IMG/VR virus record: IMGVR_UViG_2778261168_000003
Length of the DNA: 35,120 nucleotides
Source: a virus
Taxonomy: Duplodnaviria; Heunggongvirae; Uroviricota; Caudoviricetes
Direction: 5' to 3' (one strand)
The notes under the pieces were generated by a model, which saw only the letters and a list, made by a program, of their open reading frames with translations, searched no databases and had not been told where the DNA came from. Shown here one piece after another: positions 1 through 32,388 of this stretch. The position numbers and the translations under genes were made by a program. Each line of letters starts with the position of its first letter. Within the stretch, counting starts at the first letter, position 1.

Positions 1-1017
1 TCACACTTCTAGCGTTGCGAGGGGGTTGAATCTCAGAGCCGTCTCAAGATGATCGGGTGCTAAATGGGCATAGCGCATAGTCATTTTTATATCGTGATGT
101 CCGAGGATTTTTTGCAAAGCAAGGATATTTCCACCCGACATCATGAAGTGCGCCGCAAACGTATGGCGCAGAACGTGTGTCAGTTGACCGCGAGGGAGCA
201 CGATAGACGTTTTTTCCATCACGGATAAAAATTGAAAATAGCAGTCTGTAAAGAAATTGAACCCATCAAGCGCCATGATCTCTTCGTAAAGCTCTTTACT
301 GATAGGGATGCTTCTGTTTTTCTTCCCCTTCGTTCTTACAAAGGTAATTCGGTATTTGGTCACTTGCGAGCGGGTAAGATTTATTGCTTCTCGCCAGCGT
401 GCGCCTGTGCTTAGGCATATCTTGACTACCAGTGCCAGAATTGGGTCCTGACGTTTGCAATCAGCCAGCAGTTCAACAATCTGCTCATGGGTAAGCCATG
501 CCATCTCTTTTTCTGCGATGGTGAATTTTCGCATGTTCTCCAGTGGGTTCGGATACGACCATTCGCCCAGGCGGGATAGTTCGCTAAAAACACTACTTAG
601 ATAGCTTTGCTCCAGGTTAATGGTGACCGGGCTTGCTCCTTTCTTCCATTTCTCGCTGAAGTAGATCTCACCTGTCAGGCGTTTATCTCGATAGTGGGCA
701 AACATTTTAGAGGTTAGATCAGTTGCAAGGGGATTGCCCAGAGCGTCAACCATCAACAGCAGTTTGTCATAGACATGCTGCCCAGCTGTCAGAGATTTAC
801 CATGTAGTTTGAACCATAGCTCAATCACGTCTTTCAATGTCCGACGATCCACTGATTCGCCCAGCCAGGGCTTTGCTTCGGTTTCTTCCATCGTGTGACG
901 CTCAAAAGCCAGAGCTTCGCCTTTGGTGGCGAATTGTTTACGCACACGACGTCCACTACGTCCGGCGGGGTAACATTCGCAAAGCCATTTTCCTGTGGTG
1001 AGTTTTCGTACTGCCAT
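1..1017 (-). CDS. int: Tyrosine integrase (P2 Int-like)
   Basis: Minus-strand ORF; C-terminal region carries tyrosine-recombinase motifs (ARWRE, HVLRHTFA, LGHHDIKMTMRYAHL). Start chosen at the Met of MAVRKLTTGKW (338 aa), not the upstream in-frame extension to 1095. Stop codon at positions 1-3. Confidence 0.85.
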   Translation of the reverse strand: MAVRKLTTGKWLCECYPAGRSGRRVRKQFATKGEALAFERHTMEETEAKPWLGESVDRRTLKDVIELWFKLHGKSLTAGQHVYDKLLLMVDALGNPLATDLTSKMFAHYRDKRLTGEIYFSEKWKKGASPVTINLEQSYLSSVFSELSRLGEWSYPNPLENMRKFTIAEKEMAWLTHEQIVELLADCKRQDPILALVVKICLSTGARWREAINLTRSQVTKYRITFVRTKGKKNRSIPISKELYEEIMALDGFNFFTDCYFQFLSVMEKTSIVLPRGQLTHVLRHTFAAHFMMSGGNILALQKILGHHDIKMTMRYAHLAPDHLETALRFNPLATLEV

Positions 1018-1203
1018 AAAAAATGCCCTCCAGTAGAGAGCATTTTTACTGTATGTATAACCAGTGTCAATGTATGAAATCCTGCGACCATACATCTCAC
1101 TGAAGCCATAATGAAGTTAGCTATTTTTTGCTATGTGAGTATGTGACTTTTGCGGTTAGCCTGCGGCTCATTGTTATATTAGGCGCAGATATAAAAGCAA
1201 AAT

Positions 1204-1410: not shown

Positions 1411-1986
1411 TTACCTAACGTACTTAATTGTTAAACTTATAATTTTCCCAATTATTTCAACATCTTCTATCTTGCACTCGAAGGCTCTGTTTCCACCCTC
1501 GACGAAGATTCTTCCACCGGGTAAACGAGTAATGTCACGGATCGTTATTTCGCCATCAATACTTATTACCCATTTACCATCACGTATATCATCAAATTCC
1601 TTATCACAAATAAATTCAGAATTATTATCTGTGATTACAAAAAGATTCTTGAATGCCGACGGTAGAAATTCTCTATCGAAAATATAAAAACCGTCTTCAC
1701 ACAAGGCCCCATCAGATAATACATATTTAGCAACTTCCATAGTATTTGTATTACCTGAAGTTTGCTTTGAACCATGCCCGGTTGTGAGCCAATTAAGCGA
1801 GGTGCCTGTTTCAAGGGCGCACTGGATTACCCATTCTGCTGGGAATGAGTCACGCATGTAGCGTGTGGCGAGTGTACTTTTAGAGATTCCTAAATGATCG
1901 CACAACGCCTGTCGAGTCTTGAATCCATAAGCTTCTACCATGCGCTCTATAGCGCCTCGTCCGCCTTTCTCCAAATTCATGGTCAC
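1411..1986 (-). CDS. cI: Immunity repressor, 186 CI-like
   Basis: 191-aa minus-strand ORF upstream of and co-oriented with int; N-terminal HTH-like segment (LCDHLGISKSTLATRY); divergent from the apl/cII early operon as in phage 186. Confidence 0.75.
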   Translation of the reverse strand: MTMNLEKGGRGAIERMVEAYGFKTRQALCDHLGISKSTLATRYMRDSFPAEWVIQCALETGTSLNWLTTGHGSKQTSGNTNTMEVAKYVLSDGALCEDGFYIFDREFLPSAFKNLFVITDNNSEFICDKEFDDIRDGKWVISIDGEITIRDITRLPGGRIFVEGGNRAFECKIEDVEIIGKIISLTIKYVR

Positions 1987-3382: not shown

Positions 3383-3449
3383 CCAACTAATGAAATTAAT
3401 GGCGTAAACCCGCCGGGCATCCCTTTATCTAAATTCAGGAGAATTGCTT

Positions 3450-3683
3450 ATGCGTAATATTGAAACCCTCACGACCAAAACCGGACCGGATGATGCAGGT
3501 CTTAATCTTTTACTTACAGAGGCTCGTCTGGAAGAACGCCGGGCAAGGGCTGAAGCAATGGCTGCTCGCCTCGATAGCCTGGCGTGTCATATCACCTCCC
3601 GCCAGCTAAACCACGTCGAAGCGGCAGAACTGCTGCGTGTGACTGCTGAAGCAATCCAGAACGAAGCGCAGGAGATCCACTGA
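3450..3683 (+). CDS. Early-region hypothetical protein
   Basis: ATG at 3450 preceded by AGGAG; 77 aa; stop overlaps the start of the next gene. Confidence 0.45.
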   Translation: MRNIETLTTKTGPDDAGLNLLLTEARLEERRARAEAMAARLDSLACHITSRQLNHVEAAELLRVTAEAIQNEAQEIH

Positions 3684-3910
3684 TGGCTGATGCAATGGAT
3701 CTTGTACAGCAGCGCGTTGAAGAAGAACGCCAGCGCCATATCCGTGCTGCCCGTGCCAAAACGCCGGGCGTGTCCCGCGTGCTTTGCGTTGAGTGTGAAG
3801 CGCCAATTCCGCCAGCACGCCGCCGTGCCATTCCTGGAGTGCAGCTTTGCATTACCTGCCAGGAAATCGCAGAGCTGAAAGGCAAACATTACAACGGAGG
3901 TGCTGTATGA
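3683..3910 (+). CDS. TraR/DksA-family C4 zinc-finger protein
   Basis: 75-aa ORF with CVEC-x17-CITC four-Cys arrangement typical of the TraR/DksA C4 zinc finger; ATGA overlap with the downstream dam start. Confidence 0.6.
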   Translation: MADAMDLVQQRVEEERQRHIRAARAKTPGVSRVLCVECEAPIPPARRRAIPGVQLCITCQEIAELKGKHYNGGAV

Positions 3911-4764
3911 GCACCATCCTGAAATGGGCGGGTAATAAAACCGCCATTATGTCCGAACTGAAAAAATACCTTCCTGCTGGCCCGCGACTGGTTGAACCTT
4001 TCGCGGGTTCTTGTGCTGTGATGATGGCGACGGATTACCCCAGCTATCTGGTTGCGGATATTAATCCTGATTTAATCAACCTCTATAAAAAGGTTGCTGC
4101 TGATTGCGAGGCGTTTATATCTCGTGCCAGAGCTTTATTTGAGGAAGCAAACAGGGAGGTGGCTTATTACAACATAAGGCAGGAGTTTAATTACTCCTCT
4201 GAAATTACTGATTTCATGAAAGCGGTATATTTCCTGTATCTCAATCGTCATGGTTACCGTGGGTTATGTCGCTATAACAAGAGCGGGCATTTCAACATTC
4301 CCTATGGGAATTATAAAAATCCGTATTTCCCTGAAAAAGAAATTCGCAAATTTGCAGAAAAAGCCCAGCGAGCAACGTTTATCTGCGCCAGCTTTGATGA
4401 AACGCTGGCGATGTTGAAGGCGGGGGATGTGGTGTATTGCGATCCGCCTTATTACGGTACGTTTTCCGGTTATCACACTGACGGCTTCACTGAAGATGAC
4501 CAGTATCACCTGGCATCCGTTCTTGAACATCGGTCATCAGAAGGACATCCGGTCATTGTTTCTAACAGTGACACATCCCTGATCCGTTCGCTGTATCGCA
4601 ATTTTACTCACCACTACATCAAGGCAAAACGCAGCATCGGCGTAGCAGCTGGTGAGAGTAAATCTGCAACAGAAATCATCGCTGTTTCTGGGGCGCGCTG
4701 CTGGGTGGGATTTGATCCTTCGCGTGGCGTGGATAGTTCTGCCGTGTACGGAGTGCGTGCATGA
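3907..4764 (+). CDS. dam: DNA adenine methyltransferase (Dam-like)
   Basis: N-terminal AdoMet motif (ILKWAGNK...EPFAGSCAV) and catalytic DPPY motif (CDPPYYGTF); GGAGG RBS 7 nt upstream of ATG 3907. Confidence 0.85.
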
Positions 4765-7175
4765 GCCATGCTGATATGAACAACTGCAGCGGCTTTAACG
4801 AGGCCGCCGCAGCATTCTCATGGAACAGCCCGAAAAAGGCTATTAACCCTTATCTGGACCCGGCGGAAGTTGCGCCGGTTTATGCGCTTTCAAACCTGAT
4901 CACTCTGTACGCTGCCGATAACGAGCAGGAACAACTGCGCCGCGAGGCACTGAGTGATCAGGTCTGGGAGCGTTATTTCTTTAATGAATCCCGTGATCCT
5001 GTCCAGCGCGAAATGGAGCAGGATAAGCTCATTAGCCGGGCAAAGCTGGCGCATGAGCAGCAGCGTTTTAATCCAGACATGGTCATTCTGGCGGACGTCA
5101 ACGCTCAGCCTTCCCATATCAGCAAGCCGCTGATGCAACGTATTGAATACTTCAGCAGCCTGGGCAGGCCAAAGGCTTATTCCCGCTATTTGCGTGAGAC
5201 GATTAAGCCATGTCTGGAACGACTGGAGCATGTACGCGAGAGTCAGCTATCCACTTCTTTTCGCTTTATGGCAAGCCATGAAGGGCTGGACGGCCTGCTG
5301 ATCCTGCCTGAAATGAGTCAGGCTCAGGTGAAACGCCTGTCCACCCTTGTTGCTGCGCATATGAGCATGTGTCTTGATGCAGCTTGTGGCGATTTGTATG
5401 CCACCGATGACGTTAAGCCAGAAGAAATCCGCAAAACATGGGAAAAGGTGGCAGCGGAAACCCTGCGTCTGGATGTTATTCCGCCTGCGTTTGAGCAACT
5501 CCGTCGGAAAAGAAACCGCCGTAAACCCGTGCCCTATGAACTCATTCCGGGTTCGCTGGCGCGTATGTTGTGTGCCGACTGGTGGTATCGGAAATTATGG
5601 AAGATGCGTTGCGAATGGCGGGAAGAGCAGTTGCGTGCTGTCTGCCTGGTCAGCAAAAAAGCATCCCCCTATGTCAGCTATGAAGCCGTGATGCATAAAC
5701 GTGAGCAGCGCCGTAAGTCGCTGGAGTTTTTTCGTTCTCATGAACTGGTGAACGAAGACGGCGACACGCTGGATATGGAAGATGTGGTAAACGCCAGCAG
5801 CAGCAACCCTGCGCATCGCCGCAATGAGATGATGGCCTGTGTTAAAGGTCTGGAGCTTATCGCGGAAATGCGCGGTGACTGCGCCGTTTTCTACACCATC
5901 ACCTGTCCGTCACGTTTCCATTCCACGCTAAATAACGGCAGGCCCAACCCAACCTGGACAAATGCGACGGTAAGACAAAGCAGTGATTATCTGGTCGGCA
6001 TGTTTGCTGCATTTCGTAAGGCGATGCACAAAGCCGGATTGCGGTGGTATGGCGTGCGGGTGGCTGAGCCGCATCATGACGGTACAGTTCACTGGCACCT
6101 GTTGTGTTTTATGCGCAAAAAAGACCGCCGCGCCATCACTGCATTACTGCGTAAGTTTGCCATCCGTGAAGACCGCGAGGAGTTGGGCAATAACACAGGG
6201 CCGCGCTTTAAGTCTGAGTTGATTAACCCGCGCAAAGGAACGCCGACAAGCTACATCGCGAAATACATTAGTAAGAACATTGACGGGCGTGGTCTGGCTG
6301 GCGAGATCAGCAAGGAAACGGGTAAATCCCTGCGTGATAACGCTGAATACGTTAATGCCTGGGCGTCTCTGCATCGTGTTCAGCAATTCCGCTTCTTTGG
6401 CATTCCGGGGCGTCAGGCTTACCGTGAACTGCGATTACTGGCTGGTCAGGCGGCAAGGCAACAGGGGGACAAAAAAGCAGGTGCGCCGGTACTGGATAAC
6501 CCGCGCCTTGATGCAATCCTGGCTGCTGCTGATGCTGGTTGTTTTGCCACCTACATCATGAAGCAGGGCGGCGTACTGGTTCCCCGCAAATATCACCTGA
6601 TCAGAACCGCTTATGAAATCAACGAAGAGCCGACCGCCTATGGCGATCACGGCATTCGTATTTATGGCATCTGGTCACCCATTGCAGAGGGCAAGATCTG
6701 CACTCATGCAGTGAAGTGGAAAATAGTTCGTAAGGCCGTTGACGTTCAGGAGGCGGCAGCCGACCAGGGCGCTTGCGCCCCTTGGACTCGTGGCAATAAC
6801 TGTCCCCTTGCTGAAAATTTGAACCAACAAGGGAAAGACAAATCAGCTGATGGGGATACCAGAACGGACATTACCCACATGGATGACAAGGAGTTGCACG
6901 ATTACCTACACAGTATGAACAAAAAAGAGCGCCGGGAACTGGCTGCAAGGTTACGCTTGGGGAAACCGAAACGGCGTAGAGACTACAAACAGCGAATTAC
7001 AGACCATCAACGACAGCAGCTCGTCTATGAACTGAAGTCCAGAGGATTTGATGGCAGCGAGAAAGAGGTCGATTTACTCCTTCGCGGCGGCAGTATTCCG
7101 TCAGGAGCAGGCCTGCGTGTCTTCTATCGGAACCAGCGTTTGCAGGAAGATGATAAGTGGCGGAACCTGTATTAA
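4761..7175 (+). CDS. A: Rolling-circle replication initiator gpA (P2 A-like)
   Basis: 804-aa ORF; HxH-type motif ([10 protein letters not shown]) and tyrosine motif (YIAKYISK) as in P2 gpA; ATGA overlap with dam. Confidence 0.9.
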
Positions 7176-7761: not shown

Positions 7762-7874
7762 TTTTGTCAATAGACGCTTGTTTTTACTAATCAAAAAGGG
7801 TTACATATGAGTGAGAGGCGATGTCAATCAGATATCGCCTTGTTTTTTGTCAAGAAAAGAATAATAGGCTAAAA

Positions 7875-8552
7875 ATGAAAATTAATAATGTAGCGTTACC
7901 AATATCTCTTGCTGTAATCCTAACTGGTTGCGTGCCACATGCTTCTAACCGAAATATCACTGCTATTGAAGTGGTGAAGCCTGCTATTGGGCAAAGTGCT
8001 ACCGCCTACATGGGCGATCCCATTATCACATCTGCTACTGGATTTAAAACGGACGTACTAGAACTTGGTGCGGCTAATGGTGCATTGTCTTCTATCGCTG
8101 CTGGTACATATTGCAGTGAGGGGAATGGAATTTACCGCAATTATCATAACCCTCAAGCTGTTGCGTTAAAAAATCTCTATGGGCAAATCGGTAACTATGT
8201 TGATTATGTTAGTTACGATGCTGCAAAAAATGAGATATCACCGCCAAATGGTACTTCTTATACTGCATCAGAAATTTCTATCAAACGTGTTCCTGATGGG
8301 CTGTGTCGAGTTAGTAACTCATTGGTTAAGACTATCGAATACAATGGAAATGCAGGCGGTGTAATGAAGTTCACCTATCGTGAATTTGCAAACGATATGG
8401 CTCGTGCAGCATTTACAACAGATTTTTCTGTAGATTCTAAGGGAAGTGACGTTATCGCTTACAAAGGTGCCAAGTTCAAAGTGAACAAGGCTGATAACTC
8501 GTCTATTTCTTATACAATTATTTCTGGCTTTGACAAGGCTGTCACGTTCTAG
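7875..8552 (+). CDS. Lipoprotein of unknown function (cargo gene)
   Basis: Signal peptide with lipobox (ISLAVILTGC); 225 aa; AT-rich codon usage unlike the phage core. Confidence 0.6.
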   Translation: MKINNVALPISLAVILTGCVPHASNRNITAIEVVKPAIGQSATAYMGDPIITSATGFKTDVLELGAANGALSSIAAGTYCSEGNGIYRNYHNPQAVALKNLYGQIGNYVDYVSYDAAKNEISPPNGTSYTASEISIKRVPDGLCRVSNSLVKTIEYNGNAGGVMKFTYREFANDMARAAFTTDFSVDSKGSDVIAYKGAKFKVNKADNSSISYTIISGFDKAVTF

Positions 8553-8655
8553 GTTTCACGCTTGCTGAGTATGTTACGATTTTGCACATTCTGCATAAAC
8601 GCGCATGTCTATGCTGCATGAGATCGCATGATCGTTTGAGGATCTTTTGTGTTAA

Positions 8656-8680
8656 GGCCCGCCAGTTCTGGCGGGCTTTT
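8656..8680 (+). terminator. Rho-independent terminator-like hairpin
   Basis: GCCCGCCAG-TT-CTGGCGGGC stem followed by TTTT. Confidence 0.45.
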
Positions 8681-8725
8681 GCGTAGATCATGCAGGTGCA
8701 TGAAAACCACTACATAAAGCGGGCA

Positions 8726-8744
8726 GGCGTGGCGGGGATACGAG
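8726..8744. other. Candidate cos (cohesive end) site
   Basis: GGCGTGGCGGGGATACGAGCGCGCGCT resembles the P2/186 cohesive-end sequence as recalled from memory (186 GGCGTGGCGGGGAAAGCAT; P2 GGCGAGGCGGGGAAAGCAC, followed by GCGCGCT). Confidence 0.45.
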
Positions 8745-8896
8745 CGCGCGCTAAGTCATATAAGAGTTATATATTGATTTGATTGCTGGACATGCATACA
8801 GTATCGCTCTATCATCTAATAAATCTTAGAGTATTTGACAATGTTTGGATAAAATGGAACCTAACTTATTCATAATCCGCTAAACAGGGATGTCAG

Positions 8897-18521: not shown

Positions 18522-18966
18522 ACTGCAGAAGGTGGACGACTGGCTGAGTGTCTTGCTGACGAATCTGGAGCCAGCCGCAAGAAGCCGCATGATGCGTCAG
18601 CTGGCGCAGGAACTGCGCCGGACACAGCAGCAGAATATCAGGATGCAGCACAACCCTGACGGTAGCAGCTATGAACCGAGACGGGTAACAGCACGCAGCA
18701 AAAAGGGTCGCATCAAACGTCAGATGTTTACAAAGCTGCGCACCACCAAATACCTGAAAACTGCCGCCAGCGCCGATTCTGCCAGCGTGCAGTTTGAAGG
18801 TAAGGTGCAGCGCATTGCCCGCGTTCACCATTACGGCCTGCGTGATCGTGTAAGCCGTAATGGTCCGGAAGTGCGGTATGCAGAGCGGCGATTATTAGGT
18901 TTCAATAACGATATAATGTTGAAGTTAATTGATCTGTTAACTCGGCATTTAATTAATCCAAACTAA
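18514..18966 (+). CDS. S: Tail completion protein S-like
   Basis: 150 aa; synteny with P2 S; the last ~20 codons are AT-rich and overlap the convergent cargo gene. Confidence 0.7.
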   Translation: MAELQKVDDWLSVLLTNLEPAARSRMMRQLAQELRRTQQQNIRMQHNPDGSSYEPRRVTARSKKGRIKRQMFTKLRTTKYLKTAASADSASVQFEGKVQRIARVHHYGLRDRVSRNGPEVRYAERRLLGFNNDIMLKLIDLLTRHLINPN

Positions 18967-20158
18967 GTTTATATTTCTCAATGTGATTATTGATGTGATT
19001 AAAGAACATTCTTGGATTCCAACCTTTTGTGAGTTCAGAAATTAAATACTCATCAACCATGTCGAGTGCATAGTCTAAGGTCGGCTGTAAAAGTAGCCCC
19101 CCAATTGATCCAACTACTGGAGCTAAAGGAGATGTAATATTCGATGCCGCTAAGGCTCCAGTTAACATCATGGCAATGCTCTTAGTCGAACGGCCTAAAA
19201 AGGAATCAAAAAATCCTTTTGAGTTTGATATGCTATCAATGTAATATTTTGAGATGTCACTCGCTGAACTGCTTTGTTCTGCTTCTTTTAACCATTTTCT
19301 GAATTTTTTAGCATGACGATCATTTCTGAGCCTCATGATGTCATTCATTGGTAATCCCATTTCAATAAATGATTTACGTAAGTCAGGGAAGTTTTCAATG
19401 AGTGAAATTTGTTTGAATATCTCATTCTTATCAATTGTAATTAATGCTTGGCTGATAATTGCACTCACATTGTCTGTTATGTGGGGGCGAGCTTTTTTAT
19501 TAACGAGATATTTAAAGTTGAACAGTTCTTCTGCAACTTTTCCTAACTTTTTTTTATCGGTAAGACTCAAATCTGTTAATTTCTCTTTAGTTAAATCGAT
19601 TCCCAACTGGTTAAGTTTACCACTATTCAAAGCTGATATTGTCATGTCAACACAGTCTTTTTCTAAACCTTTGGGAATGTCTAAGTAGTTATCTCTCAGT
19701 TTTTTAATAAGATTTCTTTTTTCACCAGGTTTAAGACCTTTTCTTAATACGCTGAGCCCAGTTGAGATCGACTCCTCAGGGTCCGTATGTACGGTACTAT
19801 TAAATCTCATGCTAACTAATGGAAGAGTTCCAGGTATCGGAGATGAAATGTATCCAACATTGGCAGTCCATAATGAAAAACTAAGAGCCTCTTGGTCAAT
19901 TAATCTCTCAACATCATATAGGCCTATCTCATTAACCAGAAAAGCAAGTGGAACGTTTTCTCCATATACTTTGAAGTTTAATTTTTCATTTAAAATAAAA
20001 CCCTCAAATAGCTTTGATCTAATATTTTGAAGTTTTTTAGGTTGATCTATTATGTCTTGCTTCGTGAGCTGTGTTTCGCCAATCATAATATATTTTCGGC
20101 AGTAATCGTTTAGTTCTGTATCAAATAAAGCATTCGATATATCTATTTTTTTTGACAT
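18953..20158 (-). CDS. Cargo protein of unknown function at the S/V (P2 orf30-type) locus
   Basis: 401-aa ORF antisense to the late operon in a strongly AT-rich insert; hydrophobic stretch near the C-terminus (IAMMLTGALAASNITSPLAPVVGSIGGLLL); no recognisable catalytic motif. Confidence 0.6.
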   Translation of the reverse strand: MSKKIDISNALFDTELNDYCRKYIMIGETQLTKQDIIDQPKKLQNIRSKLFEGFILNEKLNFKVYGENVPLAFLVNEIGLYDVERLIDQEALSFSLWTANVGYISSPIPGTLPLVSMRFNSTVHTDPEESISTGLSVLRKGLKPGEKRNLIKKLRDNYLDIPKGLEKDCVDMTISALNSGKLNQLGIDLTKEKLTDLSLTDKKKLGKVAEELFNFKYLVNKKARPHITDNVSAIISQALITIDKNEIFKQISLIENFPDLRKSFIEMGLPMNDIMRLRNDRHAKKFRKWLKEAEQSSSASDISKYYIDSISNSKGFFDSFLGRSTKSIAMMLTGALAASNITSPLAPVVGSIGGLLLQPTLDYALDMVDEYLISELTKGWNPRMFFNHINNHIEKYKLSLD

Positions 20159-20333
20159 CTTATGATCCTGTTATCCTTGTGAGGACACCCTAGAGTAATA
20201 GTGAATTTATAAATACACAGCGGCATAAATTAGATCTTTTAAGATTTTTTTTCAATCTATAAATATATATAAGTGAAAAGTGATTTTTTGACTGTGAGGG
20301 CGGCAAAAGGTGTGGGACGACTTTAAAAGTCAT

Positions 20334-20351
20334 TGTGCTATTGATTACACA
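20334..20351. promoter_or_regulatory. Late-activator (Ogr) dyad TGT-N12-ACA upstream of V
   Basis: TGTGCTATTGATTACACA; shares TGTGC-ATT with the dyad upstream of FI. Confidence 0.4.
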
Positions 20352-20397
20352 AGCTTGCGACCTATCCAGGTGACTCCTGGAAAGACATTCTATAGGC

Positions 20398-22825: not shown

Positions 22826-24552
22826 GCACAAAATTTTATACCCTGCTGACGGATATTGGCGCGGCGAAACTTGCCAGCGCCGCCGCGCTCGGTGTGCCTT
22901 TAAAAATTACCCATATGGCGGTCGGCGATGGCGGCGGAACATTGCCAACGCCGGACGCAAAGCAGACAGCATTGGTAAATGAGAAACGCCGGGCTGCGCT
23001 GAATATGCTCTATATCGACCCGCAGAACAGCAGCCAGATTATTGCCGAACAGGTGATCCCAGAAAACGAGGGCGGTTGGTGGATACGTGAAGTGGGCCTG
23101 TTTGATGAGTCCGGGGCATTGATTGCCGTGGGCAACTGCCCGGAAAGCTATAAGCCACAACTGGCTGAAGGCAGCGGGCGCACCCAGACCGTGCGCATGG
23201 TGCTGATTACCAGCAGTACGGACAATATCACCCTGAAAATCGACCCTGCTGTCGTGCTGGCAACCCGTCATTATGTAGATCAACAAATAGAAATTCATGA
23301 GCAATCGCGCCGCCATCCTTCTGCGTCTTTGACAGAAAAGGGATTTGTACGTCTGTATAGCGGTGTGGAAAGCAATGATGAAACAGTCGCTGCAACGCCA
23401 AAAGCAGTGAAAATAGCGATGGATAATGCCAGCGCCAGACTGGCAAAAGACCGCAATGGTTCTGATATTCCCAATCCGGCACTGTTTGTTCAGAATCTGG
23501 GATTGAAAACGACTGTTGATAAAGCTGCATCAGCGATTCAGCCAGGAGATTATGGAATTGGCCTGGCTTATCTGAAAACCATGGGAACCAAATCGCAATT
23601 TTTTGCTTATGGTACAGCTGTCGGCTATCCAGAAGTGCCAACACATGGTGCTGGTTTCCAGGCCTGTTACAACGACAATCGACGTGCACAGATTTATGTC
23701 GCTAATGATGGCAAGATGTACTGTCGATTCAGCATGTTATCGAAAATTGCCGATGATGAAACACCGTGGAATCAGGTGTTCACCAGTGCACATTATCCAG
23801 AAGCATCAGTGAGTGTTAAAGGAATGGTGCAATTGGGGAACGATGTAAACAGCGTGTCAGAAAATGTTGCGGCGACATTGAAAGCGGTAAAAATTGCGAT
23901 GGACAACGCCAGCGCGAGACTGGCAAAGGACCGCAATGGTGCTGATATTCCTGACCCGACTTTGTTTATTCAGAATCTGGGACTTAAACCGACGGTTGAT
24001 AAGGCTGAAAGTGCTCTGCAACAGGGAGCATACGGAATCGGTAGCAATAATAACTACGAAATGGGTGAGGTTTCACAGTTTCTTGCATATTCAGGTAATG
24101 CAGATGAAGTGCCATCGAATGGTGCAGGTTTTCAGGCTGTGTATAACAAGAACAGACGCGCGCAGATTTTCATCACCGGAGCAGGGGAAATGTATCACCG
24201 TTTCAGCGGCTCTGATACGGTTAAAGACAATACAACACTATGGCGTCGGGGTGTTTGTGAAGATGAATTTTCATTTGGCAGCAATTATCACCGAATAACT
24301 GGCGGTGTGCTGAAGCAGTTTTTTAACAGTTATTTTTCCGGGGCAACTGGTGTGGTGAATAAAGAGTATCAGGTGAATTTTCCGACACCATTTGCCCGTC
24401 AGTGCTGGTACGTGATCCCCGTTTTCCGTTCGTCACACGGTGGGAGTGTTGAGGGTGTCGCCATTACAGCTATTACTGCAACTGGCTTTACTCTGAGCAT
24501 CACCGGAGATAACGGTGGATGGAATATTGGGTTTATTGCGGAGGGGGTCTGA
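22822..24552 (+). CDS. H: Tail fibre protein H
   Basis: 576 aa; N-terminal MSTKFYTLLTDIGAAKLA... tail-fibre N-domain; variable C-terminal part contains a 160-aa tandem duplication. Confidence 0.85.
   Translation: MSTKFYTLLTDIGAAKLASAAALGVPLKITHMAVGDGGGTLPTPDAKQTALVNEKRRAALNMLYIDPQNSSQIIAEQVIPENEGGWWIREVGLFDESGALIAVGNCPESYKPQLAEGSGRTQTVRMVLITSSTDNITLKIDPAVVLATRHYVDQQIEIHEQSRRHPSASLTEKGFVRLYSGVESNDETVAATPKAVKIAMDNASARLAKDRNGSDIPNPALFVQNLGLKTTVDKAASAIQPGDYGIGLAYLKTMGTKSQFFAYGTAVGYPEVPTHGAGFQACYNDNRRAQIYVANDGKMYCRFSMLSKIADDETPWNQVFTSAHYPEASVSVKGMVQLGNDVNSVSENVAATLKAVKIAMDNASARLAKDRNGADIPDPTLFIQNLGLKPTVDKAESALQQGAYGIGSNNNYEMGEVSQFLAYSGNADEVPSNGAGFQAVYNKNRRAQIFITGAGEMYHRFSGSDTVKDNTTLWRRGVCEDEFSFGSNYHRITGGVLKQFFNSYFSGATGVVNKEYQVNFPTPFARQCWYVIPVFRSSHGGSVEGVAITAITATGFTLSITGDNGGWNIGFIAEGV
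23350..24230 (+). repeat. Tandem duplication of about 480 bp (160 aa) inside tail fibre gene H
   Basis: Near-identical nucleotide runs start at 23386 and 23866 (GCGATGGA.AA.GCCAGCGC.AGACTGGCAAA.GACCGCAATGGT); protein units AAT.KAVKIAMDNASARLAKDRNG.DIP.P.LF.QNLGLK.TVDKA...GAGFQA.YN.NRRAQI. Confidence 0.8.
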
Positions 24553-24986
24553 TGAGTTATTTTTACAGTCCATCAAGAAATGCATTTTATAACAGTGAAC
24601 TGAAATCTGATTATTACGATGCTCTCGATGCGTGGCCGGATGACTGTATTGAGGTAAGTGATGCAGTCTATCAGGAGTTTTATCTTGGTTATCGGGAAGG
24701 GTACAAAATGGTTGCAGGCACTGATAACCAGCCATCATGGGAAGAACGTCCACCATTGACCCATGAGGAACAGGTGGAACAGGCAGAAATGATGAAACAG
24801 ATGCGCATTAATGAGGCTAACAACCTGATTAATGAAAAACAATGGCCATCAAAATTACAGCTTGGCAGGCTGAACGAAATGGAGACAACCAGATTTAATG
24901 CGATGCTGGATTATCTTGAGTTACTTGAAAATATTAATGTAAGTGATGCCCCGGATATAGTCTGGCCTTTATCACCAGAAGTCTGA
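24552..24986 (+). CDS. G: Tail fibre assembly chaperone G
   Basis: 144 aa starting at ATG 24552 (TGATG overlap with H stop); synteny. Confidence 0.7.
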   Translation: MSYFYSPSRNAFYNSELKSDYYDALDAWPDDCIEVSDAVYQEFYLGYREGYKMVAGTDNQPSWEERPPLTHEEQVEQAEMMKQMRINEANNLINEKQWPSKLQLGRLNEMETTRFNAMLDYLELLENINVSDAPDIVWPLSPEV

Positions 24987-25024
24987 ATACATCCCCGCGT
25001 CTTCGGGGATTCCTGTATCCGCCG

Positions 25025-25042
25025 TTGTGCCATTTTTCATAC
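25025..25042. promoter_or_regulatory. Late-activator (Ogr) dyad TGT-N12-ACA upstream of FI
   Basis: TGTGCCATTTTTCATACA, centre about 85 nt upstream of the FI start. Confidence 0.45.
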
Positions 25043-25118
25043 AAACCACATAACGTGCATCCTGCTCGTATCAACCAGAACATAGGCAGACCCCCTCTAC
25101 TACCGGAGAGACTGCCTT

Positions 25119-32046: not shown

Positions 32047-32265
32047 ATGATGATTTGCCCACTGTGTGGAAGTGCCGCCCATACTCGCAGCAGTTTTCAG
32101 GTATCTTCATTGACCAAAGAGCGTTACAACCAGTGCCAGAACATTAACTGCAGCCATACTTTTGTTACCCATGAAACTTTTGTTCGTTCGATTGCAACGC
32201 CAAAAGAGTCAAATCCGGTTCAGCCGCATCCAATGAAATCAGGACAGGTGGCGCTCTCTCTTTGA
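32047..32265 (+). CDS. ogr: Ogr-like zinc-finger late transcription activator
   Basis: 72 aa from ATG 32047; CPLCGSAAH...CQNINCSHTF closely parallels P2 Ogr (CPLCQHAAH...CQNVNCSATF). Confidence 0.8.
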   Translation: MMICPLCGSAAHTRSSFQVSSLTKERYNQCQNINCSHTFVTHETFVRSIATPKESNPVQPHPMKSGQVALSL

Positions 32266-32351
32266 CGCTGCCGCCATTTTGCCGCCATCGTTAAAAAACA
32301 GTGCTTCTAACATCATGATTTTAAACAGCATAAATTTAAGGCAACAAAAAA

Positions 32352-32388
32352 CCCATCAACCTTGAACCGAAATGGCGGGGTTGATGGG
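32352..32388 (-). terminator. Hairpin with T-run on the minus strand, possible ybjL terminator
   Basis: CCCATCAACC...GGTTGATGGG stem with an A-run on the plus-strand 5' side (T-run for the minus strand). Confidence 0.35.

Follow-up and report, generated by a model that had tools for sequence, protein, structure and literature searches.

Gene map around the 19-nt motif

The window (the whole stretch of DNA analysed, 35,120 nt) starts at the stop codon of an integrase gene, so that attL lies outside it, and runs through a prophage into host genes. The features that frame the motif studied here are the following:

1-1095, minus strand: integrase
1411-1986, minus strand: CI repressor of the 186 type
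3847-4764: Dam methylase
4761-7175: replication protein A
right-arm end, before the lipoprotein gene: DinI-like gene
7872-8552, plus strand: lipoprotein gene, last of the right arm (lipobox LTG/C; phrog_1353; 100% identical to its homologue in Escherichia coli HS phage 1)
8726-8744, plus strand: candidate 19-nt cohesive-end sequence (cosN equivalent), identical to the cos of HS phage 1 and of SEN8
8897-9811, plus strand: HipA-like kinase, 304 aa (HipA_C, weak; PADLOC PDC-M03A, 2e-122)
9808-10548, plus strand: HIRAN-domain protein, 246 aa, with the HIRAN domain C-terminal (HIRAN; PADLOC PDC-M03B, 3e-93)
10583-11623, minus strand: portal gpQ, first conserved left-arm gene (Phage_portal; 92-94% identical to HS phage 1, C-terminus divergent)
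11620-13386, minus strand: terminase large (ATPase) subunit gpP (Terminase_6N, Terminase_6C, Terminase_5)
15441-16091, plus strand: terminase small/endonuclease subunit gpM (Phage_term_smal, E = 3e-40)
among the packaging and head genes, with Q, P and M: scaffold and capsid genes
32047-32262: ogr, end of the late genes
32343-32356: attR core AACAAAAAACCCAT, intact and identical to the att core of HS phage 1
32501-34833: host genes ybjL and ybjM, beyond attR

The motif sits in the 344-bp intergenic region between the lipoprotein and kinase genes, with A (4761-7175) on one side and Q (10583-11623, minus strand) on the other. A position between A-side accessory genes and Q is also what we found in 120/120 IMG/VR contigs carrying the 26-mer made of the motif and the CGCGCGC that follows it (among the matches listed). 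An earlier note on this DNA had drawn the arms in the same way, with the lipoprotein gene closing the right arm and the kinase cassette opening the left one, and the map bears this out: the lipoprotein gene (7872-8552) lies left of the motif and the kinase and HIRAN genes (8897-10548) lie between it and Q. In P2, circular phage DNA is cut at cos by a terminase made of gpP and gpM; the cohesive ends that result have 19-nt 5' overhangs, and the gpQ portal is the route by which the DNA enters the procapsid. A cognate P2-type terminase (gpP and gpM), full-length, is encoded in the same element as the motif.

A cohesive-end sequence shared with a mapped phage

The 19-mer at 8726-8744 (plus strand) reads GGCGTGGCGGGGATACGAG, letter for letter as the earlier note had quoted it when proposing a candidate cos site, and window positions 8726-8752 read GGCGTGGCGGGGATACGAGCGCGCGCT. 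A pattern search for GGCGWGGCGGGGA gave a single exact match in the 35,120-nt window, at 8726. With two mismatches allowed, two further matches appeared, at 4721 and 29958, for a chance mean of 1.6; a second cos-like site in the window was accordingly rejected, these matches (<=2 mismatches) being at chance level.

Direct experimental evidence on the function of this 19-mer comes from a sister phage. Using mitomycin C to induce E. coli HS, Zünd et al. 2021 (PMC8008629) located the cos of HS phage 1, by start-site analysis and PhageTerm, as 5'-GGCGTGGCGGGGATACGAG-3' at 926016-926034 (PMC8008629, Suppl. Table 4). We confirmed the 19-mer at exactly 926016-926034 of NC_009800, where it matches the window at 19/19 positions; by our own arithmetic, an exact 19-mer match to a mapped cos is expected by chance ~2 x 35120 / 4^19 = 3e-7 times per window. 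The cos reading of the earlier note is thus supported by a mapped, identical 19-mer. Of the 180 bp directly preceding the 19-mer on its left, only three differ between window and HS phage 1. Annotated relatives point the same way. The record of Salmonella phage SEN8 (Felsduovirus) begins with GGCGTGGCGGGGATACGAGCGCGCGC, the same 26 nt, and its last position corresponds to 8725 in the window. The identical 19-mer has been annotated and published as the cos of SEN8, and in Escherichia phage Cartapus the same stretch is annotated 'homologous to the cos of P2 phage'. An identical site is also present in Fels-2, RE2010, SopEPhi and many Klebsiella prophages. This cos variant is therefore already known, mapped and annotated in sister phages, and the present site is a further copy.

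Outside three replaced cargo or tail-fibre segments (8757-10643, 18891-20397 and 23412-25117), the window is 92-97% identical to HS phage 1, and for the prophage in general the figure is about 96-97%. Both terminase subunits are nearly unchanged, with 587/588 identical residues in gpP (99.8%) and 214/216 in gpM (99.1%), and since terminase and cos are both near-identical, enzyme and substrate are essentially those of a phage with mapped ends. All genes of HS phage 1 except its cargo gene and a LysA-like gene have homologues without internal stops in the window. These are 82-100% identical (41% for G), most of them over their full length; the partial alignments are those of Int (1-336 of 343, at the window edge), LysB (17-142) and S (1-142 of 148) and, among the swapped tail-fibre genes, H (1-229 of 583) and G (35-123).

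Several differences from HS phage 1 lie away from cos. Its LysA-like gene, between lysozyme and LysB, is without counterpart at window 17560-17620, and the N-terminus of LysB differs. Replacement at 23412-25117 affects assembly protein G and the C-terminal part of tail fibre H, a swap of the host-range module. The segment 18891-20397, of 1.5 kb, is inserted between tail genes S and V at the second P2 variable slot and has no equivalent in HS phage 1; its cargo gene, a 401-aa ORF on the opposite strand (18953-20158, minus strand), gave zero matches in Pfam, PADLOC and PHROGs.

Judging from these sequence comparisons, positions 8726-8744 are very probably the cos of an apparently intact P2-family (Fels-2/186-like, Felsduovirus-like) E. 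coli prophage integrated next to ybjL, which terminase would cut to leave 19-nt 5' overhangs, presumably at the same place as in HS phage 1. The remaining uncertainty is only whether the present prophage is active. The cos could be genuine and yet functionally dead, a conserved relic never cut in this strain because the prophage is cryptic or non-inducible. Inducibility is not readable from sequence, attL lies outside the window and relatives do decay at this locus, as in E. coli E300010, where an IS100 lies 13 bp left of the nick and A is a pseudogene. We nevertheless consider such a relic very unlikely, since the replication, lysogeny, head, terminase, tail and lysis genes are shared, free of internal stops, with the inducible HS phage 1, the core of the cos module is 100% identical to that of Fels-2 and HS, and the attR core at 32343-32356 is intact.

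The reading of 8726-8744 as a working cos can also be set against the classical phages of the family. For this, the record ends of P2, 186, PsP3 and P4 were joined, all sequences were anchored on the top-strand nick and the comparison was left ungapped. One pattern, with zero gaps, is common to the window and these four: CATGCA..TGCATKAAAACC....C..AAAGCGGGCR up to the top-strand nick, then GGCGWGGCGGGGA.A..A. as overhang, then YGCGCGC past the bottom-strand nick. PMC5694545 credits Ziermann & Calendar 1990 with a core of ~55 bp shared by P2 and P4 cos, and its elements AAAACC, AAAGCGGGCR and YGCGCGC are all present in the window, where the core can be delimited as follows:

8696-8751 (-30 to +26), plus strand: cos core of ~56 bp, GTGCATGAAAACC...AAAGCGGGCA, then the 19-mer, then CGCGCGC

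Ungapped, this core is 56/56 identical to that of Fels-2 and E. coli HS and 55/56 to those of SEN8, Cartapus, KP12 and SopEPhi; identity falls to 45/56 with PsP3, 44/56 with 186, and 43/56 with both P2 and P4. The alignment to P2 and 186 that the earlier note had named as a check is thus gapless, with 43/56 and 44/56 positions identical in the core. The sequences it gave for these two phages are also correct: NC_001895 1-19, from P2, reads GGCGAGGCGGGGAAAGCAC, and NC_001317 1-19, from 186, reads GGCGTGGCGGGGAAAGCAT, the first 13 nt of which are identical to the window, and the GC-rich tail it had likened to P2 is CGCGCGC here vs TGCGCGC in P2. Both 19-nt stretches carry a cohesive-end annotation, and in both records, which start at cos, a leftward portal gene comes next. 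Within the overhang, identity is 16/19 with ENT90 and a Yersinia phage, 15/19 with 186 and PsP3, and 14/19 with P2 and P4. The window 19-mer fits the GGCG(A/T)GGCGGGGA... cohesive-end type of the P2 family, with its conserved 5' part matching at 13/13 positions, and, in exact 19-mer and flanking core, the cos variant of Fels-2, SEN8 and HS phage 1 (...GGGGATACGAG followed by CGCGCGC). Its last six bases are unlike those of P2 and 186 (ATACGAG vs AAAGCAY), so that the assignment depends on annotations and on a single mapping by sequencing, done in a sister phage, rather than on classical biochemistry.

The idea that the motif is a chance G+C-rich match, the true packaging site lying elsewhere (for example beside Q) or packaging being of the pac/headful type, might draw on the position of the P2 and 186 cos only ~170 bp from the portal stop vs 1.86 kb here, but it has next to no probability and is already effectively refuted by the 56/56 core identity with Fels-2/HS and the gapless 43-45/56 with P2/P4/186, by the spread of the cos-Q distance in 86 related contigs with the same cos (172-3550 bp, among the matches listed), and by the mapping of the HS phage 1 ends to the same motif.

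For a cos at 8726-8744, the predicted nicks are 8725^8726 on the top strand and 8744^8745 on the bottom strand, which would produce 5' overhangs; these positions were taken from the 186 record ('top strand cut at 5' end and bottom strand cut at 3' end'). The heptamers 5' of the two nicks form a quasi-inverted repeat, GCGGGCA (8719-8725) on the top strand and GCGCGCG on the bottom strand (complement of CGCGCGC at 8745-8751), as compared with GCGGGCG and GCGCGCA in P2. Packaging would then proceed as in P2. After induction and excision, the genome would circularise, the gpP ATPase and gpM would recognise a module of ~150 bp (8602-8751) and the two strands would be nicked at 8725^8726 and 8744^8745; the resulting linear genome with 19-nt 5' overhangs would be packaged via the gpQ portal. 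The expected virion map is cos, kinase, HIRAN protein, Q, P, late genes, ogr, att junction, int, CI, A, DinI, lipoprotein, cos.

The conserved module around the predicted nick

Scanning IMG/VR for the 26-mer returned at least 120 contigs, of which 112 distinct sequences were used to calculate information content; the 26 searched positions are identical by construction, and the flanks were free to vary. In these 112 sequences (ungapped, among the matches listed), each position from about -124 to -1 carries 1.4-1.9 bits of information, as against ~0.1 bit left of -130; right of about +30, the value falls to 0.35 and then to ~0.1-0.2 bit. Recombination junctions fall at the same borders. Twenty E. 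coli genomes with the same kinase cassette match the window only from 8601-8609 rightwards, their left neighbour being different, and Fels-2, HS and others share the left side with the window and diverge from it at 8752-8756; seven Fels-2-type phages (the window included) have seven different sequences from +27 on. Information content and junctions together delimit a module, within which the following elements can be distinguished:

8602-8751 (-124 to +26), plus strand: conserved cos module, ~150 bp, beyond which the phages have unrelated sequence on either side
8603-8607, 8616-8620 and 8626-8630 (-123, -110 and -100), plus strand: three direct GCATG boxes, recognised by their positional conservation
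8654-8680, plus strand: G+C-rich hairpin followed by TTTT (repeat 8654-8665 / 8668-8679; stem -69..-63 / -56..-50), from the repeat finder
8689-8693 (-37) and 8698-8702 (-28), plus strand: proximal box pair, an inverted CATGC and a GCATG, just upstream of AAAACC

P2, P4, 186, PsP3, ENT90, the Yersinia phage and the Fels-2 group all have the three direct boxes equally far from the nick without gaps, except that the first box of P2 is one base off; in P2, P4, 186 and the Fels-2 group, the boxes at -37 and -28 keep their position as well. GCATG has a density of 23 per kb in 8553-8725 vs 1.2 per kb in the whole window (~20-fold). The hairpin, whose distance from the nick is conserved, shows evidence of conserved pairing, with 91% of cells paired vs 31-50% when the partner is slid, and 4/7 of its pairs have changed on both sides in a compensatory manner (P4, ENT90, 186). 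A consensus terminator scan missed this hairpin (8654-8679), as it did the one at 10556-10579, and both were recognised by the repeat finder, direct reading and the pair count. The 8654-8680 hairpin is likely the terminator of the lipoprotein transcript, and it could be merely a transcription terminator.

Boxes and hairpin all lie on the right-arm side of cos, and CGCGCGC is all that is conserved past the bottom-strand nick. Given the positional conservation of the upstream GCATG boxes and hairpin, which extends to P4, a satellite that shares little else with its helper, we infer that they may form the part recognised by terminase. Confinement of such a recognition part to the right-arm side would explain that unrelated cargo starts only 7 bp past the bottom-strand nick. 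In its strict form, with the cos of the P2 family and P4 as a one-sided ~150-bp module having three boxes, hairpin and proximal pair on the right-arm side and needing only 7 bp beyond the bottom-strand nick, this proposal is tentative and we regard it as unlikely. If the boxes were indeed the terminase recognition site, this would explain both the exchange of defence cargo flush against +26 and the way in which satellites copy the packaging signal of their helper. This one-sided arrangement of boxes and hairpin is the modest residue of possible novelty at the locus, and part of it may already be described in Ziermann & Calendar 1990. On the minimal cos, the P4 cosmid papers gave no information. 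A natural truncation of the module exists in E. coli E300010 (NZ_CM128601.1, around locus positions 3900-4041), where an IS100 inserted 13 bp left of the nick has left the site without its upstream boxes and hairpin.

The 67-nt core at 8686-8752 occurs in 1277/5426 complete E. coli genomes (about a quarter); a few records labelled as plasmids, seemingly phage or chromosome entries, have it as well. Homologues of psu, sid, delta and alpha were absent from the 120 IMG/VR contigs with the 26-mer (among the matches listed), which gave no evidence for a use of this cos variant by P4-like satellites. One metagenomic viral contig, IMGVR_UViG_3300011853_000021, has two opposed copies of the 26-mer, at 3440-3465 (minus strand) and 6704-6729 (plus strand), 3.2 kb apart, which may be an assembly artefact or a rearrangement.

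Cargo beside cos and comparison with known phages

The kinase/HIRAN cassette that separates cos from Q is absent from HS phage 1 and matches the PADLOC candidate defence system PDC-M03. The hipIN modules (Gerdes et al. 2021, PMC8262856) have the same kinase plus HIRAN architecture, and in them the HIRAN domain has been proposed to sense DNA ends; our literature search found no experimental test of a hipIN-like or PDC-M03 cassette. The cassette has its own promoter-like site at 8787-8815 and ends at a perfect 10-bp hairpin, 10556-10579, which it shares convergently with Q and which fills the 34-bp gap between them. We rejected a cos placed next to Q as in P2 and 186, for which just these 34 bp, forming the hairpin, would be available. 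The same cassette in the same slot is present in 21 complete E. coli genomes and in 3/120 IMG/VR contigs (among the matches listed).

The 1857 bp that separate cos from the portal stop here, vs ~170-180 bp in P2 and 186, are typical of the family. Among the matches listed, the 86 contigs with the same cos have a median cos-Q distance of 1620 bp, 12 of them being without insert, and in contigs with the same cos the distance from DinI to cos also varies, from 205 to 3444 bp. These variable distances indicate that both sides of cos are cargo slots. The cargo swap has its right junction within the 3' end of Q and not in the intergenic terminator: the last ~20 codons of Q (10583-10643) are unlike those of HS phage 1 (346 aa vs 341 aa), and homology to HS resumes at 10644. 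A retron St85-type system fills the cos-Q slot of E. coli E300010, whose gene A is a pseudogene.

A cargo position beside cos has been described since 1996. Dodd & Egan (1996) are cited for retrons Ec67 and Ec86 replacing DNA between cos and a terminator in 186-related prophages, the cosL-Q interval has been termed a hotspot (PMC5694545), and the gpA-gpQ region by cos is a defence hotspot of P2-like phages (Rousset et al. 2022). In all of these, foreign genes replace the DNA from cos to terminator or portal, as the kinase/HIRAN cassette does, although their cargo is unlike the hipIN-like PDC-M03 cassette. For the prophage studied here, the position of cos fixes the virion map: the kinase/HIRAN cassette occupies the cargo slot next to the left cohesive end, and the slot at the right end belongs to the lipoprotein gene. 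Annotation benefits from this, and the element can be read as carrying cargo at two separate positions, one on each side of cos. No new biology is added, since the cos is mapped or annotated in sister phages, its core is widespread in E. coli and cos-side cargo has been known since the work on retrons Ec67/Ec86.

One of the systems with which this cos can be compared is phage lambda. The lambda cos (cosN and cosB) receives staggered nicks that give 5' cohesive ends, and its recognition sequences lie asymmetrically on one side. The staggered nicks and 5' cohesive ends are thus a likeness with the cos described here, and a one-sided recognition element in the P2 family would be another, by analogy; lambda differs in its 12-nt overhang, and its sequence and terminase recognition elements are unrelated to those of the window cos.

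Closer are P2 and P4 (cos GGCGAGGCGGGGAAAGCAC), which have the architecture and the 19-nt 5' overhang found in the window. P4 further has CGCGCGC as its tail, together with the GCATG boxes upstream and the hairpin, whereas P2 is without the hairpin, has the tail TGCGCGC and confines its cargo (old, tin) to the right-arm side of cos. In 186 and PsP3 (cos GGCGTGGCGGGGAAAGCAT), the GCATG boxes and the hairpin are at the same distances as in the window, and the CI repressor of 186 is of the same type as that of the present prophage. They differ from it at overhang positions 14, 16, 17 and 19 and in their TGCGCGC tail, and carry no cargo, the portal gene lying ~175 bp past cos.

The nearest counterparts are HS phage 1, SEN8 and the Fels-2-type phages, which have the same upstream module, the same position of cos between DinI/lipoprotein and portal, and a near-identical terminase. 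HS phage 1, SEN8 and Fels-2 differ from the window cos region only in the cargo to the right of +26, which is a 463-aa hypothetical protein in HS, a 565-aa hypothetical protein in Fels-2, a hypothetical protein and an HNH endonuclease in SEN8, and the kinase/HIRAN cassette in the present prophage.
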